A stretch of DNA of 64,000 nucleotides from Candidatus Kapaibacterium sp. (GTDB lineage Bacteria; Bacteroidota; Ignavibacteria; Kapaibacteriales; UBA2268), in contig OY761611.1 of NCBI GenBank assembly GCA_963664875.1, forward strand, positions 2,976,001-3,040,000, written 5' to 3'. The notes under the pieces were generated by a model. The model saw only the letters and a list, made by a program, of their open reading frames with translations, made no database searches and was not told where the DNA came from. This document shows, piece after piece, positions 24,779-61,481 of the stretch. The translations under genes were made by a program, and so were the position numbers. Position 1 is the stretch's first letter. Every line of letters begins with the position of its first letter.

Positions 24779-25804
24779 TTATTTACTTCCTTTTGTTTTA
24801 GATTTTTTGTTGTTTCTAATAAAAACTCTGAGCAGGTTTTCTATTTCTTTGGAATTGCCATAATCACCCGTCATGAAATATGCACCGCCTGAGCTTTTGT
24901 TGCCGGAGTCCTGCTCTGTTTCGTGTTCCTGTTTGGAATACATCAAAGTAACTGCGTAAGTAATAAGAAGCGAAAATTCCAATCCCAGAGCAAAAAAGAT
25001 AATAGATGGCTGAGTCGAAGGTATAAATTTCAAACCTCGCAAGCCAATTATTATAATAAGAACTGCCGCACCTACATATACATAGCCCAAGACAGTATTG
25101 CCGTATTTTGCAGTGAAATAGAACCTTAAATAAACTTTTATGTAATCATTGAGAGAAAGAATTTTGGTGAAAATATTTTTTTCACGCCATTTCAAAGCTT
25201 TATGTAGAGTTTTTAAATCCTCAAGATGGAAGCCCCATTCCTCTTCGAAGTCGTGCATATCTCTAAGATTAGCAGTCAGTATCTCCTGAGCCAGTTCGTC
25301 CAAATGCTCGTCCGATTGGTAACCGTATTTAGCCAAAGCAATTTTATCGAGAGTATTAGCAATTTCTCTCTCAATTTTTTGTCTCATAAACCCAAACTGT
25401 TGCGGCAGTAGGGTAGATATAAATACTGAAATTACTAATCCGATAATCAATGAAGGAATCAATAAAGACAAAAGAGGATTGAACCAGTACCTAACTTCCT
25501 GAGGCGTATTGATATAAATATCTATAGCCCAGTTTGTATAATAAGAAGTTTCATGCAGCGAAGCACTACTTTCTTTGACATATTCCACATGTTCGCCTGC
25601 ATTGTAAACCTTACCGTCAAGTCCGGACTCTAATACAGCCTCTACCACAGGAAGCGAAAACAAAAAAGTAGTAATTACAGCCAAAACAAACAGAACGAAT
25701 ACAATAATCATTTGTAAAGTATTGTGCTCTGACAAATCAAAGTATTTTTTTCTTGATTGATTATTCGATTGCATAAGCCTCTCTGTCTCTTCAAAGTCTT
25801 TCAA
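24779..25804 (-). CDS. Four-TM membrane protein whose C-terminal helix pair resembles GldL/PorL
   Basis: TTG start; YVYVGAAVLIIIIGLR...FFALGLEFSLL (see findings). Confidence 0.65.
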   Translation of the reverse strand: MKDFEETERLMQSNNQSRKKYFDLSEHNTLQMIIVFVLFVLAVITTFLFSLPVVEAVLESGLDGKVYNAGEHVEYVKESSASLHETSYYTNWAIDIYINTPQEVRYWFNPLLSLLIPSLIIGLVISVFISTLLPQQFGFMRQKIEREIANTLDKIALAKYGYQSDEHLDELAQEILTANLRDMHDFEEEWGFHLEDLKTLHKALKWREKNIFTKILSLNDYIKVYLRFYFTAKYGNTVLGYVYVGAAVLIIIIGLRGLKFIPSTQPSIIFFALGLEFSLLITYAVTLMYSKQEHETEQDSGNKSSGGAYFMTGDYGNSKEIENLLRVFIRNNKKSKTKGSK

Positions 25805-25862
25805 TATAAGTCTTTATTTCTTAATTACAAATTCAATTCATTTTACTTCAATAAAAAAATAG

Positions 25863-25878
25863 AGCCAATAACGTGCCA
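25863..25878 (-). promoter_or_regulatory. sigma54-type box
   Basis: Minus strand TGGCAC-GTTAT-TGGCT about 60 nt upstream of the 24779..25804 gene. Confidence 0.6.
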
Positions 25879-25991
25879 ATATACCGCATATATAATCTAA
25901 TACGCGATATATTGGCTTGTGGTTCAATTCCCGAAATAGTAAATGTCCATTTTACGGACAAGGCAATTCTCTTATTGAAGTGAATCAACTG

Positions 25992-27272
25992 TTAGATCCA
26001 ATCAGCCGGATTGGTGTACATTGATAGTATGTATATTGCTGTAAATGCAACAAAAAATAATATACCAATGAGTGCAAGTATATTTAGCCATTTCTTTGGA
26101 CGAAATTCCTGTGGAACAAGGCTGCTATTTACAAGCTTATAATTTAGTACTGCATAGATTGGGCCTGCTACAAATGAGACAAATGTAGCGATATCTATCA
26201 GGTAAGTCATGCCTGAAGTGAAAAATTCGATTATAAAAATACTTGCAACAACTAAGGCTAATGTTATGTATAGCTCGATTTTGTCAGAATCTGTTTTAGA
26301 ATTTGGAACTATATTTTTGTAGCAGGCTCCAAGGACTCTTGGATATGCATCAAATACTGTTATTGTCGTAGAAATCATTGTAATGGTTGCAATGGTTGTG
26401 ATTATCGGCAAAGTCCAGTTTCCTAAGGTTTTTGAGTACAAACCAATCAGCTGTGCTGAAAAAGCAACTCCCTGAGCAGAAAATTCTTCGCCCGTGCCGT
26501 ACATTACCAAAGCACCTAAGGCAAGAAAACAAACAGCGAGAATGGCAGTGATGATATATCCAAAATTGAAATCGAACAGAACATTTTTAATATCAGGTCG
26601 ATAGCCGAGTTGCTTAGTTTGCTCTGCTGACCATAAGGATGGCCAGACTGATACTTCAATAGGGGCAGGCATCCAACCCATCAGCGAAATAAGGAACGCA
26701 ATGCCGGCACCGCTTAGCAATTCAGGAGCTACAAAATCAGGCATTGCATTAGAACCTTTTAGCATAGCTGCTATCATAGCAAAAACTGTAGCAAAACTAA
26801 GAATAGCAACCAAATATTTAACTACTTTGTCGAGCATTTTGTATTTACCAAAGAAGAGGAGTGAAAGCGAAACTACATACAAAATGATTAACGAAAATCT
26901 CGTACTAAGTTCGATTCCTGTCAGCACTTTAACAGAATATCCGCTAATAGCAGCAGTTACTAAACTGACTGCCGCAACTGTTATAAACGAAGTGATACCC
27001 GACATGATAAAATAAGTGGTCAGAGCCCATTTACCTAATTTGCGATAACCGTCTATCATATTCTCGCCGGTCGCACCGGTCCATCTTTGAGCAAATTCGA
27101 AAAACGGATATTTGAAAAGATTTACTAAGATGACTATCACTATGAGGTTAGACCCATAAAGAGCTCCGGCACGGGTGGATTGCACCAGATGTGAGACTCC
27201 GACTGCGGCTGCAGCAAAAAGCAAGCCCGGTCCTAAAGTTTTCAGTAATGATTGTTTTGAAGACAGAGTCAT
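25992..27272 (-). CDS. NRAMP/SLC11-like divalent metal transporter
   Basis: LGPGLLFAAAAVGVSHLVQSTRAGA, KYPFFEF, LMGWMPAPIE, about 11 TM helices. Confidence 0.85.
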   Translation of the reverse strand: MTLSSKQSLLKTLGPGLLFAAAAVGVSHLVQSTRAGALYGSNLIVIVILVNLFKYPFFEFAQRWTGATGENMIDGYRKLGKWALTTYFIMSGITSFITVAAVSLVTAAISGYSVKVLTGIELSTRFSLIILYVVSLSLLFFGKYKMLDKVVKYLVAILSFATVFAMIAAMLKGSNAMPDFVAPELLSGAGIAFLISLMGWMPAPIEVSVWPSLWSAEQTKQLGYRPDIKNVLFDFNFGYIITAILAVCFLALGALVMYGTGEEFSAQGVAFSAQLIGLYSKTLGNWTLPIITTIATITMISTTITVFDAYPRVLGACYKNIVPNSKTDSDKIELYITLALVVASIFIIEFFTSGMTYLIDIATFVSFVAGPIYAVLNYKLVNSSLVPQEFRPKKWLNILALIGILFFVAFTAIYILSMYTNPADWI

Positions 27273-31520: not shown

Positions 31521-31536
31521 TACAATTACTGTGCCA
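31521..31536 (-). promoter_or_regulatory. sigma54-type box
   Basis: Minus strand TGGCAC-AGTAA-TTGTA about 50 nt upstream of the kinase gene; IHF-like ATTCAATGAGTTG near 31650. Confidence 0.6.
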
Positions 31537-35833: not shown

Positions 35834-35849
35834 TGGCACTTGAATTGTC
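35834..35849 (+). promoter_or_regulatory. sigma54-type box upstream of the giant surface-protein operon
   Basis: TGGCAC-TTGAA-TTGTC; GCCGAT...ATCGGC inverted repeat just upstream (35785-35821). Confidence 0.5.
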
Positions 35850-46900: not shown

Positions 46901-47303
46901 GACTCCTAACTTGTCAACTGATAACAAACCAACAGCTGTATTACGTGCAGTTTACAACAATGATAATGAACTTGAATATGACAGAACTGACTTGTTTGCT
47001 ATCGAAGCTAATACATCTGTAGCCGGTTTCGAAGCTCAAGGTTACTTGTTCAATCAACCTATGCCAAATCCGTTTAGAGAAGAAGCAAAACTTACATTTA
47101 CTCTTCCTGCTACAGAATCAGTTACAATGACTGTTTACAATGCAGTAGGTAATAAAGTTGCTACTCTTATCAATGGTGATTTGATCTCTGCTGGTGACCA
47201 TGAAGTAACATTGTCCGGTCATGACTTACCTCAAGGTGTATATGTTGTACGCTTGACAGCTGGTTCATTCTCAATGCTTAGAGAAGTTGTATTAGTAAAA
47301 TAG
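40941..47303 (+). CDS. Giant T9SS cargo protein: 2 cohesin-like, 2 LamG, dockerin-like and Ig-like (PNGGE) domains, T9SS type A CTD
   Basis: LamG WMHIAATV...LYVNGE and WYHVAVYF...FFIDG; dockerin-like GDVVKDYQINGLD...YDVTGDGQNNAED; CTD QPMPNPF...VYNAVGNKVATL...LPQGVYVVRL. Confidence 0.85.
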   Translation: MTSKIKNPARHGSKLSWGSLVWFAAALFLFAIEGFAQDYELSMKPRRLGNQLGVEIWMKSLNSNTAALGNASIYIEYNNAKLKPADLGATNPSSTSDSINVDIDNDGTPYESLTSAYASGDYKALSAQAVTATQGGVTVNVFGLDVNYNINGTGVGVVPSTDGRGSFIGMLRFDINWNGPDGNPSTADDITLTDTDLAMFDWNSATFAGDITLQDVNGNNIEPNVTLVTPDDFTIRGIEIFTADGGNNQVVNRYPTTEYPVFDTQNNLGYPIYFERSGLTDDAADYGHADGKIAYVLEYSLDGGTTWTETARFAETTQGHAALTGAGTVAQFADGFVDYPAAGTDYYVTDADGTVMDGSDQDILRTIWKADDNFPYRSENAKIRLTQLQNTSGVAIDGRTKLTGTTQMNASDDTFVLGRLFFAQLDGSSTYFKTRWPYSNASQLTVMAWVNLNGVSATPGAEPGIIACSEGSKSDEEGAWILYLEDGNRPAFRAREKEGRGTNGYLGSVVAPTVDALSTTSSAVPITDAHGDNWMHIAATVANGVTTLYVNGEIVAQDINTTVVDPRLANFNQTIWVGVNPNDGITATDYLNAGIKEVSVWRIALSQDVLRSYIPGVYDPSGEVLGNELEEANVDYRTGLELYYPLQGSRLDLADDNIQFSDNNLNYYTDSNIDAVATNSSINYRPDRSHIRLTAPLGGEGVSNLIDKTFEVRWAAYGLGSTTTLSEDLQIMISRDGGTTWFDAIDNAAPAMPLDNVEVEAGKATWEPYNNITISGSDDDLQGVIDIEANWSKSVKLRISGTDDRAQSSIYDESGNFLVAPWFAMQNTGDSKIEVPSNTELNLNAGAQMIEAWVRPYRFPTADEAYFPIMAKKAADGSETHYAFRLLQSGQLQLVLESSTGDALRTATSDAALPLVKPSVETKDSLWYHVAVYFNLASGSQSSVYFFIDGTIQDAAAITEQLGTNITIDNLNTLPAYIASEPTSATETKNFIGQIKEVRFWNGNPAGLTSLATITQFVQGAATVRADELISFGGIDYSENLAAAFILNGGSFVNNGMVRTVAAYPASSGLYANITDADGEGDGNVTYNFTKPTLKLIEPIYKQAIPNSKTDLRVRWTGFDYNRNDIAEKFYPGDAVMNESDLGFGTVGGGGAEILYYEPTASKKDNPTFTNAMTLTEINPQFEFQGSFPHKSQYAASLNVSITDPDANDDGTSDDQGPMGAAMTNGRLKLSGRSNVNGYVVKWDNDADGMMHSLFAESQYFNITPPSNFTVRVIPEGYYTPNTVAAGDGAIDVTGSTNNDLGTTYDQGGLKISLYSDNAGTPGTLVATNVSTEGYLNATSFSLANRNQGTNDFANVPYVFTDIEDGDYWVVVEHINHLPVMSRYPAHFKFSGDDGDTWTLESGWDFTSWTGGNTTADVMTPAEAATDPTTFGSKYSAYGNNETTESNEKYSNTGLHYKRGRILDANIDDKIPLIVAGDVVKDYQINGLDRTAIRTQTMNAATTAQYDVTGDGQNNAEDRTLVDINNGKVSSLTDVSTISLTAPKINLGDVIDNDMVAYLDKAAKEYNPDKISKQISKTDLILSGLAYTVFAETSINNDMVEVSMFIENNGGQWAMGNASFVLDYNQVNLQFVELVNNEEVIFANRQDLGYSSNYAAPQPNVKNPMAGVKSIEIDYDAYTRKAGQIVPNSKTYLGTLKFKVIKATDVYAFDWHPATAVLATNGLNMNKYGDFRVIKPVIVQRDAAILTPNGGEDWDAGALYTITWTKPNTNSQVNVEYTTDNGNTWNRISAAALDVVSGSYNWKTPAVNSDECLVRLVDAKTSIEIDRSDAPFSIISAPAEIVRPTSTDPIYRGGANDFIRWSVNEPSKVRFEFSSNGVDSWQSVSATVNSTLGQVEWIVPSVNSKQAVVRMIETETSEVLAVSKPFKVLAGAVTLANPTGVKENKPTDVKWSADNVSKFDLQLSIDGGKTWGVVATNVAALKKVYTWTPNLSTDNKPTAVLRAVYNNDNELEYDRTDLFAIEANTSVAGFEAQGYLFNQPMPNPFREEAKLTFTLPATESVTMTVYNAVGNKVATLINGDLISAGDHEVTLSGHDLPQGVYVVRLTAGSFSMLREVVLVK

Positions 47304-47330
47304 TATGACATGACATATATCTTTATTAAA

Positions 47331-47364
47331 AAAAGCTGCCTCCGCAAGGGGGCGGCTTTTTTTT
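47331..47364 (+). terminator. Intrinsic terminator of the giant-protein operon
   Basis: AAAAGCTGCCTCC-GCAA-GGGGGCGGCTTTT followed by more Ts. Confidence 0.88.
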
Positions 47365-47538
47365 AGAGCCATACGTAATGAAAGATATACTGTACAAAAG
47401 AAGTAGAAAGAAAAGAATGGATGTGATAAAATTGTCTCTTCCACATTCTGCCTCTGCCTTAATCATGTAACTAATTGCTTTTTTATATTCGTGTTCTTTA
47501 GGTATTTTTGCTTTCTTTGAATTCTAAAATGGGAATAT

Positions 47539-48435: not shown

Positions 48436-48517
48436 TGAACTTTTTTATCAGGTGCTGAATTTGTTTAGTTGCTACAAAAAATTAGAACGCTAATAACAGA
48501 TTTGGAAAATATATATA

Positions 48518-48560
48518 AAAAAAGCAGAGACTATACATATAGTTGTAGCTCTGCTTTTTT
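48518..48560. terminator. Bidirectional intrinsic terminator
   Basis: AAAAAAGCAGAG...CTCTGCTTTTTT between convergent genes. Confidence 0.8.
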
Positions 48561-48580
48561 GTTTGAAAGATTGTGTCTTG

Positions 48581-49033
48581 TTACTTGGGATATTTCCCAA
48601 AGAGCTTGTTGATTCCTCTATGGAATCTATGCACTCCTGAGACAGGCTCTAAATACATCAGAATACATTCTTTGCATATAATGTTTTTTTCTGAATTAGC
48701 TGACTTTTGAATAATATTATCAGTCTCTGATGACTGCTGAATCCAAATATTATCGAAGTTACCTTCTTTAGCAGCTTCAAAGAGCTCTTCAGACTTTTGT
48801 TTGCCGGTTACAATAATTATGCTTTTACAAGATTTAGGCAAATCCTGCAAATTATGATAACATTGTTGTCCTTCAAATTCTTCCATGTGAGGATTGATAG
48901 GGATTACATTCTTACCTTGCTTTTTCAGCTCTTTAAATATAATGCTACCAAATTTTTTGTCATCTCTTGAGACTCCGGCAACAGCGATGCTTTCAGATTC
49001 TAAGAACTTTTTTATAGACGAAAGATTCACCAT
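48581..49033 (-). CDS. CoA-binding protein
   Basis: IAVAGVSRDDKKFG, PINP, IWIQQ, ECILM. Confidence 0.88.
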   Translation of the reverse strand: MVNLSSIKKFLESESIAVAGVSRDDKKFGSIIFKELKKQGKNVIPINPHMEEFEGQQCYHNLQDLPKSCKSIIIVTGKQKSEELFEAAKEGNFDNIWIQQSSETDNIIQKSANSEKNIICKECILMYLEPVSGVHRFHRGINKLFGKYPK

Positions 49034-49061: not shown

Positions 49062-49808
49062 CTAAAATCGGAATGACACACCCATTCTAAAAGCAAGTAT
49101 ATCTGTTTTGGACTTAGCCGTTTCGTAAATAGATTGACCATTTTCTATGTCTTTAGAATTTGGAACTATATAATCGGCTGTGCCACCAAAAAGGTATTCA
49201 ACATTCAAGTCTATTAGGAATTCCCAATACCTTCTGACAGGTTCATCTGTGATACCTCTATATACATTAAAAGCAATGCCGCCACCAAATCCGTAATTAT
49301 AAGTCCAGTCGGATTTATCGTTAGAAGATGCTATATCGTCATATTCATCGTTTTTATTAATATCTTCTACCGTGGTTGTTGTCGATAGATTGTTGAAACC
49401 TGCCATAGCTTCTATGTATGGTCGGATTGGGCCAAATTCAGGCATCACTCTAACTGCCAAATCCATATTGTACATTTTATAGTCGGTAGTTACATCTACT
49501 TTCACATCAGGGATAGTCATGCTCCAAGGTCTTTGTTCCGTTGTAGAAGCAAAGTTCATCCACCCAAATTTTAATCCAAGATGGATAGGGGAGTTTTCGA
49601 TATTATAGAATAGATTTAGTCCGATACCCAATCCTGTCTTATTGTTATGGTCTTCAAAGTCCTTTTGAGGCAAGCCTGCGAGGAAGCTGGCATTAAAGGA
49701 AATTGGGTAGTATTGACTTGTGTCTTTTGTTGTGGCTGTTTCTTTTTGTGAAAAAAGCTGCAAAGTGCCCAAAACTAAAAGAGCTAATAAAATGAGTAGA
49801 TTTTTCAT
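49062..49808 (-). CDS. Outer-membrane beta-barrel protein
   Basis: Signal peptide from MKNLL; IRPYIE, YGFGGGI, YLFGGTADY, C-terminal GVSFRF. Confidence 0.8.
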   Translation of the reverse strand: MKNLLILLALLVLGTLQLFSQKETATTKDTSQYYPISFNASFLAGLPQKDFEDHNNKTGLGIGLNLFYNIENSPIHLGLKFGWMNFASTTEQRPWSMTIPDVKVDVTTDYKMYNMDLAVRVMPEFGPIRPYIEAMAGFNNLSTTTTVEDINKNDEYDDIASSNDKSDWTYNYGFGGGIAFNVYRGITDEPVRRYWEFLIDLNVEYLFGGTADYIVPNSKDIENGQSIYETAKSKTDILAFRMGVSFRF

Positions 49809-49952
49809 ATAGATTCCTTGAGTATAGAAAACAATACAGATACGGGAAAAAGTTAGGCATGTTACAAAAAATATCAAAATCTGTTCGATAAAAGTTTTTT
49901 GCTTGCTCTAATGCAAATTTTATTATTATTGTATATTGCTTGATTTAATAAA

Positions 49953-50083
49953 CGGAGTGAGCTATTGTATCGTGTACCAACATTCTGCAAGTCAATCTGC
50001 TAAGTTTGTGGTGCGAATAAGCCTCTCAGATTGGATTGTTAAGTTTTTGGTACGCTTATTGTACAGATACTAAAAACTCACCG
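49953..50083 (+). ncRNA. Candidate rod-shaped ncRNA (6S-like)
   Basis: Nested pairings GTGAG/CTCAC, GTATC/GATAC, GTGTACCAA/TTGGTACGC (or TGTAC/GTACA), GCAAgTCAATCTG/CAGATTGGaTTGT, GTTTGT/ATAAGC; several G-U pairs favour the + strand. Confidence 0.5.
50048..50063 (+). promoter_or_regulatory. sigma54-type box upstream of nadK-lgt
   Basis: TGGTAC-GCTTA-TTGTA. Confidence 0.5.
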
Positions 50084-50170
50084 CCATACGTCCCTGCGTT
50101 TGTGAAATGGGATATGTACGGAGATAAGACTTAGATTTGAAAAAAATATCGCTTCAGGAGCGGAATAAAT

Positions 50171-51091
50171 ATGATGGAAAAAATTGCTTTTTTTGAGTCA
50201 TCCGGCAAACAGGATGCTATAATTTGGGCAGAAAAAGCTTTCGAAATACTTCAAAATCATAAAGTACAAGTCATTGCTGACGAATCTTTGGCTGAGCGTA
50301 TGAGAGATGATATAAGGGAAAGACTGAAGGTTGTACCTTTAAAAGACTTTGAAAAACATGCTGACATGGTTATCTCATTTGGAGGCGATGGCACAATGCT
50401 CGCTGCAGCGAGGATTTTGATAGAATCCGGCATTCCTATTATGGGTGTAAATGTCGGTAAACTTGGCTTTCTTGCTGAATACCCGACAGGCAAATTGGAA
50501 CAAGCCATTGCTGAAGTATTAGCCGGAAAATTTAGAGTTGTGGATAGAACTGTTTTGGAAACTGAAGTAGAAGATGGCGGTACTACATTCGCTTTGAACG
50601 ATTTTGTGATTGAGAAAAAAGATTCTTCACGAATGATTACGCTCGAAGCATACAGCAATGATCACTATATCGGAGATTACAGAGCTGATGGGCTTATTGT
50701 AACTACGCCAACAGGTTCTTCGGCATATTCGCTATCTTGTGGCGGGCCTATAATTGCTCCAACTACAGAAGTGATTTGTCTCACACCAATTTCTCCCCAC
50801 ACTTTGACTTTGAGGCCTCTTGTTATCCCTGATTCTAACGAATTGCGTTTAAAAGTTTATTCTCCAACCGGAAAAGCTGCTTTGGTTGCTGACGGACAAG
50901 TGGAAAAAACTCTAAAGAACAACGAGACTATTGTTATCAGAAAATCCGAATCTAAGATTAAGTTGATTAAGCCTTTGGATTCTTCGTATTTTAGTGTGCT
51001 GCGGAGGAAATTGCTTTGGGCTGCAAATACTTTAGAAAACGAAAATAATAACTGCCCTTGTAAGGATAAAGAGAAGGAAGAGAATGTTTGA
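50171..51091 (+). CDS. nadK: NAD(+) kinase
   Basis: GGDGTML, GVNVGKLGFL, ALND, DGLIVTTPTGSSAYSLSCGGP. Confidence 0.95.
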   Translation: MMEKIAFFESSGKQDAIIWAEKAFEILQNHKVQVIADESLAERMRDDIRERLKVVPLKDFEKHADMVISFGGDGTMLAAARILIESGIPIMGVNVGKLGFLAEYPTGKLEQAIAEVLAGKFRVVDRTVLETEVEDGGTTFALNDFVIEKKDSSRMITLEAYSNDHYIGDYRADGLIVTTPTGSSAYSLSCGGPIIAPTTEVICLTPISPHTLTLRPLVIPDSNELRLKVYSPTGKAALVADGQVEKTLKNNETIVIRKSESKIKLIKPLDSSYFSVLRRKLLWAANTLENENNNCPCKDKEKEENV

Positions 51092-51878
51092 TTATCTGAT
51101 TAATTTGATTGCTGCCATTACTTGGAATGTTGACCCGACAATTTTCAAAATATGGCATATTCAACCGAGATGGTATGGATTACTATTTGCTTTAAGCTTT
51201 GTAGCCGGCTATCATATCATGCAAAAAATATTTTTGAAAGAAGGAAAAACTATAAAACAGCTTGAATCTCTTACTTATACTATGATAGCTTCTACAGTAA
51301 TAGGTGCAAGATTGGGGCATTGTTTGTTTTATGATCCTGTTTACTATTTAAGCAATCCATTAGAAATCCTGATGGTGTGGGAGGGAGGTCTTGCCTCTCA
51401 TGGTGCTGCCGTAGGTATTATCTTGGGATTATGGCTTTATATCAGAAAACAAAAAGATATGAGTTTACTCTGGATTTTAGACAGGATTGTGATTGTTGTT
51501 GCTCTTTCTGGTTTGTTTATTCGTTTAGGTAATTTCTTTAATTCCGAAATACTTGGCAGAGCAGCTGATGTTCCGTGGGCGGTGATATTTCCGAGAGTAG
51601 ATGATATACCTCGTCATCCGGCTCAGTTATATGAAGCATTTTCATATTTTGGTATTTTTATTTATCTATATATGCTTTACTTGCGCTCCGGAACTGAGCT
51701 AAAACAGGGCAAGCTATTTGGCTTATTTTTGATTTTGGTATTTGGAGCAAGATTCATTATAGAATTTTTCAAAGAGGTGCAGTCTGCATTTGAAATTGGC
51801 TTACCGTTGGATATGGGGCAAATATTAAGCATTCCGTTTGTTTTAGCAGGCTTGTATTTCGTTTTTCGTAAGAAATAA
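51084..51878 (+). CDS. lgt: Prolipoprotein diacylglyceryl transferase
   Basis: RWYGL, GARLGHCLFY, GGLASHGA, RLGNFFNSE, RHPAQLYEA, MGQILSIP. Confidence 0.96.
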   Translation: MFDYLINLIAAITWNVDPTIFKIWHIQPRWYGLLFALSFVAGYHIMQKIFLKEGKTIKQLESLTYTMIASTVIGARLGHCLFYDPVYYLSNPLEILMVWEGGLASHGAAVGIILGLWLYIRKQKDMSLLWILDRIVIVVALSGLFIRLGNFFNSEILGRAADVPWAVIFPRVDDIPRHPAQLYEAFSYFGIFIYLYMLYLRSGTELKQGKLFGLFLILVFGARFIIEFFKEVQSAFEIGLPLDMGQILSIPFVLAGLYFVFRKK

Positions 51879-61243: not shown

Positions 61244-61316
61244 GCGAGAATAGCTCAGTTGGTAGAGCACAACCTTGCCAAGGTTGGGGTCGCGAGTTCG
61301 AGTCTCGTTTCTCGCT
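61244..61316 (+). tRNA. tRNA-Gly(GCC), CCA not encoded
   Basis: Full cloverleaf GCGAGAA...CAACC-TTGCCAA-GGTTG...TTCGAGT...TTCTCGC-T; promoter TTGCAT-N17-TATTTT upstream. Confidence 0.97.
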
Positions 61317-61408: not shown

Positions 61409-61481
61409 GCGAGAATAGCTCAGTTGGTAGAGCACAACCTTGCCAAGGTTGGGGTCGCGAGTTCGAGTCTCGTTTCTCGCT
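61409..61481 (+). tRNA. tRNA-Gly(GCC), identical second copy
   Basis: Identical to 61244..61316; own promoter TTGCAG-N17-TAATTT. Confidence 0.97.

Follow-up and report, generated by a model that had tools for sequence, protein, structure and literature searches.

The spacer upstream of nadK most plausibly holds a sigma-54-type promoter of the nadK-lgt genes, beside which lies junction DNA that is complementary to the promoter region by chance, and we regard this explanation as a whole as probable. In regard to its parts, the box TGGTACG-CTTA-TTGT, with T for C at −12, is quite likely the promoter itself, its sigma-54 dependence and the operon organization being deduced from sequence, and the 131-nt rod into which this DNA can be folded very probably has no function. 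All coordinates given below refer to the window, i.e. the whole stretch of 64 kb that was analyzed, which belongs to a genome represented by a single 3.83-Mb contig with a G+C content of 36%. The features of the locus are as follows:

49062..49808, minus strand: gene of an outer-membrane beta-barrel protein (OMP; Pfam OMP_b-brl), divergent from nadK
49905..50040: lineage-specific junction DNA, with the OMP promoter region on one side and the nadK promoter on the other
49953..50083: predicted rod, an imperfect inverted repeat of 131 nt, seen in silico only and without sign of selection
50048..50062, plus strand: sigma-54-type −24/−12 box TGGTACG-CTTA-TTGT, with GG at 50049-50 and TTGT at 50059-62
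50067..50074, plus strand: conserved ATACTAAA, putative start-site region, invariant in 5/5 species
50132..50139, plus strand: TAGATTTG, an exact TAnnTTTG match and candidate second nadK promoter
50171..51091, plus strand: nadK, NAD kinase (Pfam NAD_kinase and NAD_kinase_C)
51084..51878, plus strand: lgt, prolipoprotein diacylglyceryl transferase (Pfam LGT)

The spacer between nadK and the divergent OMP gene is 362 nt long. The OMP gene has its probable ATG at 49808, and the N-terminus of its product resembles a signal peptide. Because the start of lgt overlaps the 3′ end of nadK by 8 nt, we infer that the two genes form an operon.

According to the explanation we favor, a sigma-54-dependent −24/−12 promoter within the spacer would drive the nadK-lgt operon. 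If T50062 is taken as −12, textbook sigma-54 geometry would place +1 near 50074, inside the conserved ATACTAAA, and the leader would be about 97 nt long. A rearrangement in this lineage would have put the OMP gene divergently upstream of nadK, and about 135 nt of unrelated junction DNA would now abut the promoter, with part of it happening to complement the promoter region. Such chance complementarity would be what makes a folding program draw a 131-nt rod, and with a start near 50074 nearly the whole rod, the last ten or so bases excepted, would be left untranscribed.

Closer to the gene, the ribosome-binding site CAGGAG of nadK (within 50150-50170) is flanked by two short, mutually complementary stretches in each of the five species, CGCT..AGCG in the present genome and CCTC..GAGG in the congeners (L006-L009). 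A small hairpin formed by these arms could present or mask the Shine-Dalgarno sequence of nadK.

The nadK box and its genome-wide class

The 3′ arm of the rod does contain a sigma-54-type −24/−12 sequence, TGGTACG-CTTA-TTGT at 50048-62, as had been recognized in a sequence-only reading of this DNA. The sigma-54 consensus is TGGCACG-N4-TTGC(W), and the distance between GG and TTGT in the nadK box is exactly that of the consensus. Of the non-coding DNA that precedes the start-codon region of nadK, a single block is retained by all five species of the genus, and the box lies within this block, 121-123 nt before the ATG and amid diverged flanks. It was detected in none of 24 relatives from the family and order and in none of 14 metagenomic relatives, some of which had short flanks; several of the relatives devoid of the box have nadK closely behind another gene. 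A metagenome scan with NadK for closer relatives yielded 15 loci, all with identities of 62% or less and none with the box. The genome encodes rpoN (Sigma54_DBD, 190.9 bits), and the Sigma54_activat domain was found in six full-scoring proteins (204-258 bits) and in four weak matches.

Taken as a whole, the nadK box is like known sigma-54 promoters in the spacing of GG and TTG, the intergenic site, the fixed distance to the gene and the conservation among species, in a host that likewise encodes rpoN and AAA+ activators and in which members of the same class precede flagellar and envelope genes. Some features count against this assignment. The −12 element reads GT, without the canonical GC, and no enhancer (UAS) site was recognized near the box; a shared upstream activator site is not evident, because the DNA more than about 10 nt 5′ of the box differs from that of the congeners. 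Furthermore, nadK is a housekeeping gene and as such an unusual sigma-54 target, and a term search of the sigma-54 regulon survey PMC12316311 gave no occurrence of nadK or lgt. By its −12 element, its nadK-lgt target and the lack of a recognized enhancer, the nadK box differs from canonical sigma-54 promoters, and its dependence on RpoN is presumed. Two candidates for a second sigma-54 box were inspected by eye and rejected: on the minus strand, TTGGTACAC shows ACAA where TTGT is required, and in the 5′ arm on the plus strand, the spacing between GG at 49954-55 and TTGT at 49965-68 is one base off.

The genome-wide distribution of similar sequences speaks for a class of sites to which the nadK box belongs. 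With ORFs of 150 codons or more serving as a crude mask to tell coding from intergenic DNA, TGGYAY-N5-TTGT was found 26 times in intergenic and 39 times in coding DNA, whereas the corresponding intergenic/coding counts at wrong spacings were 2/21 for N3, 0/35 for N4, 4/23 for N6 and 2/27 for N7, and TGGYAY-N5-TTGC gave 4 and 37. Intergenic sites thus number 26 for TTGT at the proper distance, compared to 0-4 at the other distances and 4 for TTGC, which marks a class that is intergenic, depends on the spacing and has T at −12. Two of its members, the bamA (Omp85) box TGGCACTTTTTTTGT and the fliP box TGGCATATCAATTGT, located on the minus strand at G000:C1:2684990 and 3819348 (loci L198-L205), do not differ by a single letter among the five species, in contrast to their diverged flanks. 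Among the products encoded behind 16 further boxes are flagellin, FliP, Omp85/BamA, another OMP, RodZ, a TonB-dependent receptor, an ABC ATPase and a large protein of the FkbM/GT2 type, whereas Pfam gave no match for three; ribosomal protein L6 is encoded behind one of the 16 boxes as well, and this site is probably false. Six more boxes, with seven downstream ORFs, added little. The window itself contains two other boxes, one at 31521-31536 on the minus strand, preceding the gene of a BadF/BcrA-family ATPase, and one at 35834-35848 on the plus strand, 443 nt before an ORF of 1533 aa whose first 1000 residues have no Pfam match.

A good box, TGGCACGCAAATTGT, was also observed at G000:C1:1945244 on the plus strand (locus L197), followed by about 1.1 kb without an ORF of 85 aa or more and with sub-threshold Rfam matches only; this stretch may yield a non-coding RNA or consist of genes in decay. 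Separately, eight records of Flavobacteriaceae (L045, L076, L085, L086, L092, L104, L113 and L114; Winogradskyella, Algibacter, Olleya, Maribacter and one uncultured) have the 17-mer TTGGTACGCTTATTGT(A/G), or its T variant, at a distance of 36-50 nt upstream of a conserved gene. The product of this gene begins ...KSQKHDANLQKNS.LYFQ and the flanks are similar (GGGATTTT...), and related matches precede a lipoprotein-like gene in Chitinophaga. As the matches in the wider collection, at least 119 in total, fall within a rough chance estimate, only recurrent orthologous sites are meaningful.

In Flavobacterium psychrophilum, a −24/−12 motif derived from start sites (SM4) is described in the text of PMC9723704 as driving chaperone, envelope and gliding/motility genes, with confirmation by mutagenesis at one operon. 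Going by that text, envelope and housekeeping targets of sigma-54 are therefore not new in the phylum. The survey PMC12316311, as far as its text describes the search, relies on TGGCACN5-7TTGCT. The string TTGT occurs in the main text of neither source.

Alternatively, the block TTGGTACGYTTATTGTR...ATACTAAA could be an operator bound by a transcription factor, or a promoter of nadK-lgt recognized by a sigma factor other than sigma-54 (ECF or atypical sigma-A), which we consider unlikely. Such a reading would accommodate the GT in place of GC at −12 and the missing UAS, and it draws on conservation reaching beyond the sigma-54 core, into the spacer CTTA and the downstream ATACTAAA, and on TTATTGTAATAA, which is nearly palindromic in two species. 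However, the near-palindrome is lost in the present genome, and the box matches neither TAnnTTTG nor a sigma-70 −35/−10 pair. Moreover, the spacing-specific enrichment of 26 over 0-4 sites is what would be predicted for a class of sigma-factor sites and not for a single operator, and members of this class with other spacers are kept upstream of fliP and bamA as well.

The spacer also contains candidate promoter signals of another type. The sequence TAnnTTTG, given as the flavobacterial −7 consensus in the text of PMC9723704, occurs 126 times in the window against 83 ± 9 expected, a number reached in none of 100 shuffles, which agrees with a Bacteroidota-like housekeeping sigma factor. On the plus strand of the spacer it is found at 50001-08 and 50132-39, and there is no exact copy upstream of the rod. 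The copy at 50132-39, which precedes the ATG of nadK by 32 nt, offers the exact −7 element of Bacteroidota sigma-A promoters (−33 TTTG / −7 TAnnTTTG), while the nearest upstream TTTG is 29 nt away. It is not conserved in the congeners, one variant run changes position 50133, and, being located outside the rod, it does not explain the rod; judged from its sequence, it may be a lineage-specific second promoter of nadK. Metatranscriptome contigs from two runs cover 50147-50431 together with 49700-49732 (X20) and 50295-50500 (X19), and none of them extends over the rod. As such contigs cannot show absence, strand or ends, the termination of one of them at 50147 is only a weak hint for the 50132-39 box. 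Nevertheless, the box and the contig end could mean that another promoter drives nadK here, which counts against the sigma-54 reading. A simple sigma-70 scan of the spacer, including the plus strand upstream of the rod, returned nothing, and a simple scan between the rod and nadK revealed no terminator-like site.

The rod as a predicted fold

The stems on which the rod had been proposed exist: GTGAG at 49957-61 faces CTCAC at 50077-81 and GTATC at 49967-71 faces GATAC at 50066-70, and GTGTACCAA at 49972-80 indeed has two possible partners in the sequence, TTGGTACGC at 50047-55 and GTACA at 50061-65. RNAfold reproduces the end-to-end rod, leaving TTATTGTACA as a one-sided bulge. The 131-nt stretch folds with −36.7 kcal/mol (z −2.83), 2 of 200 shuffles folding equally well, into a minimum free energy (MFE) structure of 41 pairs that makes up merely 2% of the ensemble. 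Six of these pairs are G-U; their earlier interpretation as a strand-specific RNA signal does not hold, because the reverse complement (−31.9 kcal/mol) has a z-score of −2.92, the same as that of the plus strand, and the G-U pairs therefore single out no RNA strand. Furthermore, among all 131-nt segments of the 64 kb, taken in steps of 20 on both strands (n = 6388), 84 have a GC-adjusted MFE equal to or lower than that of the rod (94 by raw MFE), so that many such folds are expected in the window by chance. With the minus strand equal in z-score, 84 segments at least as stable and 2% of the ensemble, a rod exceeding chance was not borne out.

Corrected for GC, the lowest folding energies over 131 nt in the window are found at 47241-47411 (+), 48501-48651 (+) and 25790-26000 (−), with residuals of −18 to −22 kcal/mol compared to −11.6 for the rod. 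The first two of them sit at gene ends and may be terminators or repeats.

Related to this, known RNA families were sought. At gathering thresholds, Rfam returned two tRNAs only in the whole window and no match on the rod, and at E ≤ 10 over 49700-50300 it returned three meaningless eukaryotic matches, none of them on the rod, and no NAD+ riboswitch or other leader family. The presumed leader at 50085-50146 has 13 listed changes in the 95%-identical variants described below and aligns poorly to the congeners. The 6S model RF00013 had zero matches genome-wide even at E ≤ 10, and the 6S-Flavo model RF01685 had none in the genome either; since the former is also silent in a Bacteroides control and the latter in all 14 control genomes, this silence does not show that a 6S RNA is absent. 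As for the rod, comparison with 6S and 6S-Flavo gave no covariance-model match at any threshold used. The two tRNA genes, at 61244-61316 and 61409-61481 on the plus strand, are 165 nt apart and have identical Rfam scores.

The rod resembles 6S RNA (RF00013) and 6S-Flavo RNA (RF01685) in its elongated predicted stem, its internal single-stranded region and its location in an intergenic spacer. On the other hand, its unpaired region is a one-sided bulge of 10 nt, in contrast to the two-sided central bubble of 6S RNA, and, unlike 6S RNA, it matches no model, is not conserved within the genus and has no promoter or terminator of its own that simple scans would recognize.

Origin and conservation of the rod

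nadK was located in all 41 genomes, and the DNA upstream of it was compared at 30 loci. In a blastn search of 49900-50170 against 40 relatives, two congeners were matched, over 50039-50074 only. The four congeners, whose NadK is about 82% identical (tblastn), have a different gene upstream of nadK, its end resembling a TRAM domain, together with its terminator hairpin, and all four lack the 5′ arm and apical part of the rod. Homology with them upstream of nadK starts about 10 nt before the box and comprises TTGGTACG(C/T)TTATTGT(A/G)-N3-ATACTAAA, followed by a short CGTC as well as the region of the ribosome-binding site. For the five equivalent stretches, the RNAalifold consensus has −5.9 kcal/mol, its covariation term is positive, and instead of a rod it shows just the terminator of the congeners and a trivial local hairpin. 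Likewise, a covariance model built from the rod (R1) found no match at nadK in 24 relatives. The lone R1 match, in genome G002 (23.2 bits, E 0.03 per genome), runs antisense inside an ORF of 620 aa with many non-standard pairs and was dismissed as chance. Neither the alignments nor RNAalifold nor R1 thus revealed a conserved or covarying rod structure in relatives, an outcome named in advance as speaking against the rod. Two loci of sister species, L039 and L111, carry the same sequence upstream of nadK.

Orthologues of the OMP gene reside elsewhere in the genomes of the congeners, and their upstream DNA resembles that of the present genome for about 95 nt before the ATG only, as judged by eye. 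Because the homologies on the OMP side and on the nadK side both stop outside it, the segment 49905-50040 represents lineage-specific junction DNA, from which the rod draws its 5′ arm and its apical part. No significant local alignment was obtained between 49905-50046 and the nadK-upstream DNA of the congeners. Two origins of the segment were considered and rejected. The apical hairpin is not a decayed congener terminator, as the alignment scores obtained were matched by 61 to 294 out of 300 shuffles, and a repeat or mobile element is contradicted by short chance words being the only matches of 49900-50170 in the whole genome (blastn-short).

Variants of about 95% identity, recovered as contigs from two DNA runs of different studies, differ from the reference across the spacer at 35 positions in 676 nt (X7 record 5) and 34 in 724 nt (X9 record 8). 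Substitutions in the rod common to both runs are at 50028, 50033, 50036, 50038 and 50042, with X9 also changed at 50063; all fall in the 3′ arm, and 49943-50027 is free of them. Of the five shared substitutions, four disrupt Watson-Crick pairs and the fifth converts A-U to G-U, with no compensation, and the reference structure imposed on the variant has −26.4 kcal/mol, which equals the mean over shuffles of the reference sequence (−26.8). In the variants, the box at 50048-62 is intact, and the change at 50063 is to G, as in one congener.

The listed variant changes are unevenly spread along the spacer, with 1 in 49813-50027, 6 in 50028-50063 and 13 in 50085-50146, plus one further change; the OMP-proximal half is nearly invariant and the presumed nadK leader evolves fast. 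To judge from this pattern, the unchanged 5′ arm (49943-50027) between changed flanks could reflect a constraint of another kind.

One such constraint would arise if the inverted repeat acted as DNA, for example as the binding site of a regulator or of a looping activator in the divergent OMP/nadK region, with inverted TTGGTAC half-sites at 49974-80 (−) and 50047-53 (+). The repeat is symmetric on both strands, its 5′ arm is invariant in the variants, and sigma-54 promoters need an activator site, of which none is otherwise seen here. However, the arrangement is absent in all four congeners, which keep the same promoter, its inner part has decayed in the variants, the genome holds just one copy of the region, and the binding of a protein is hypothetical, so this reading is improbable.

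More doubtful still is the reading of the rod as a functional RNA specific to this lineage, either a short 6S-like decoy of RNA polymerase, possibly of the sigma-54 holoenzyme, or a read-through leader that switches its pairings. It can draw on a fold that beats 198 of 200 shuffles with six G-U pairs, on both alternative partners of GTGTACCAA being present in the sequence, on the 5′ arm left unchanged in the variants and on no 6S RNA having been found elsewhere in the genome, though the models are also silent in the Bacteroides control. Against it stand the missing Rfam match, the equal folding of the minus strand and the 84 of 6388 comparable segments, the absence of the rod in 4/4 congeners and the failure to find it elsewhere in 24 relatives, the four of five variant substitutions that break pairs uncompensated, and a plus strand without a promoter-like site before the rod or a terminator-like site after it. 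A 6S-like RNA and an RNA mimicking a sigma-54 promoter, both suggested by the sequence-only reading, are thus unsupported, given that no Rfam match exists, that the 5′ arm is missing in the congeners and that the variants are uncompensated; the same goes for a switchable leader over the sigma-54 promoter, as the rod is unconserved and the presumed start leaves it mostly untranscribed. The evidence also strongly disfavors a newborn decoy, the least credible of the readings, in which a read-through plus-strand RNA with its −24 copy in duplex and its −12 copy bulged would titrate sigma-54 holoenzyme or occlude the nadK promoter. A 6S-like or sigma-54-mimicking RNA would be remarkable if true; what was found points against it.

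The preferred reading, a sigma-54-type promoter of nadK-lgt beside junction DNA, bears on how such promoters are sought. The sigma-54 boxes of this genome appear to use TTGT over TTGC, and most of the regulon would escape a scan restricted to TTGC. The putative regulon spans essential envelope and housekeeping genes, bamA and nadK-lgt among them, along with flagellar genes, and a reach of this kind fits the start-site mapping in Flavobacterium as presented in the text of PMC9723704.
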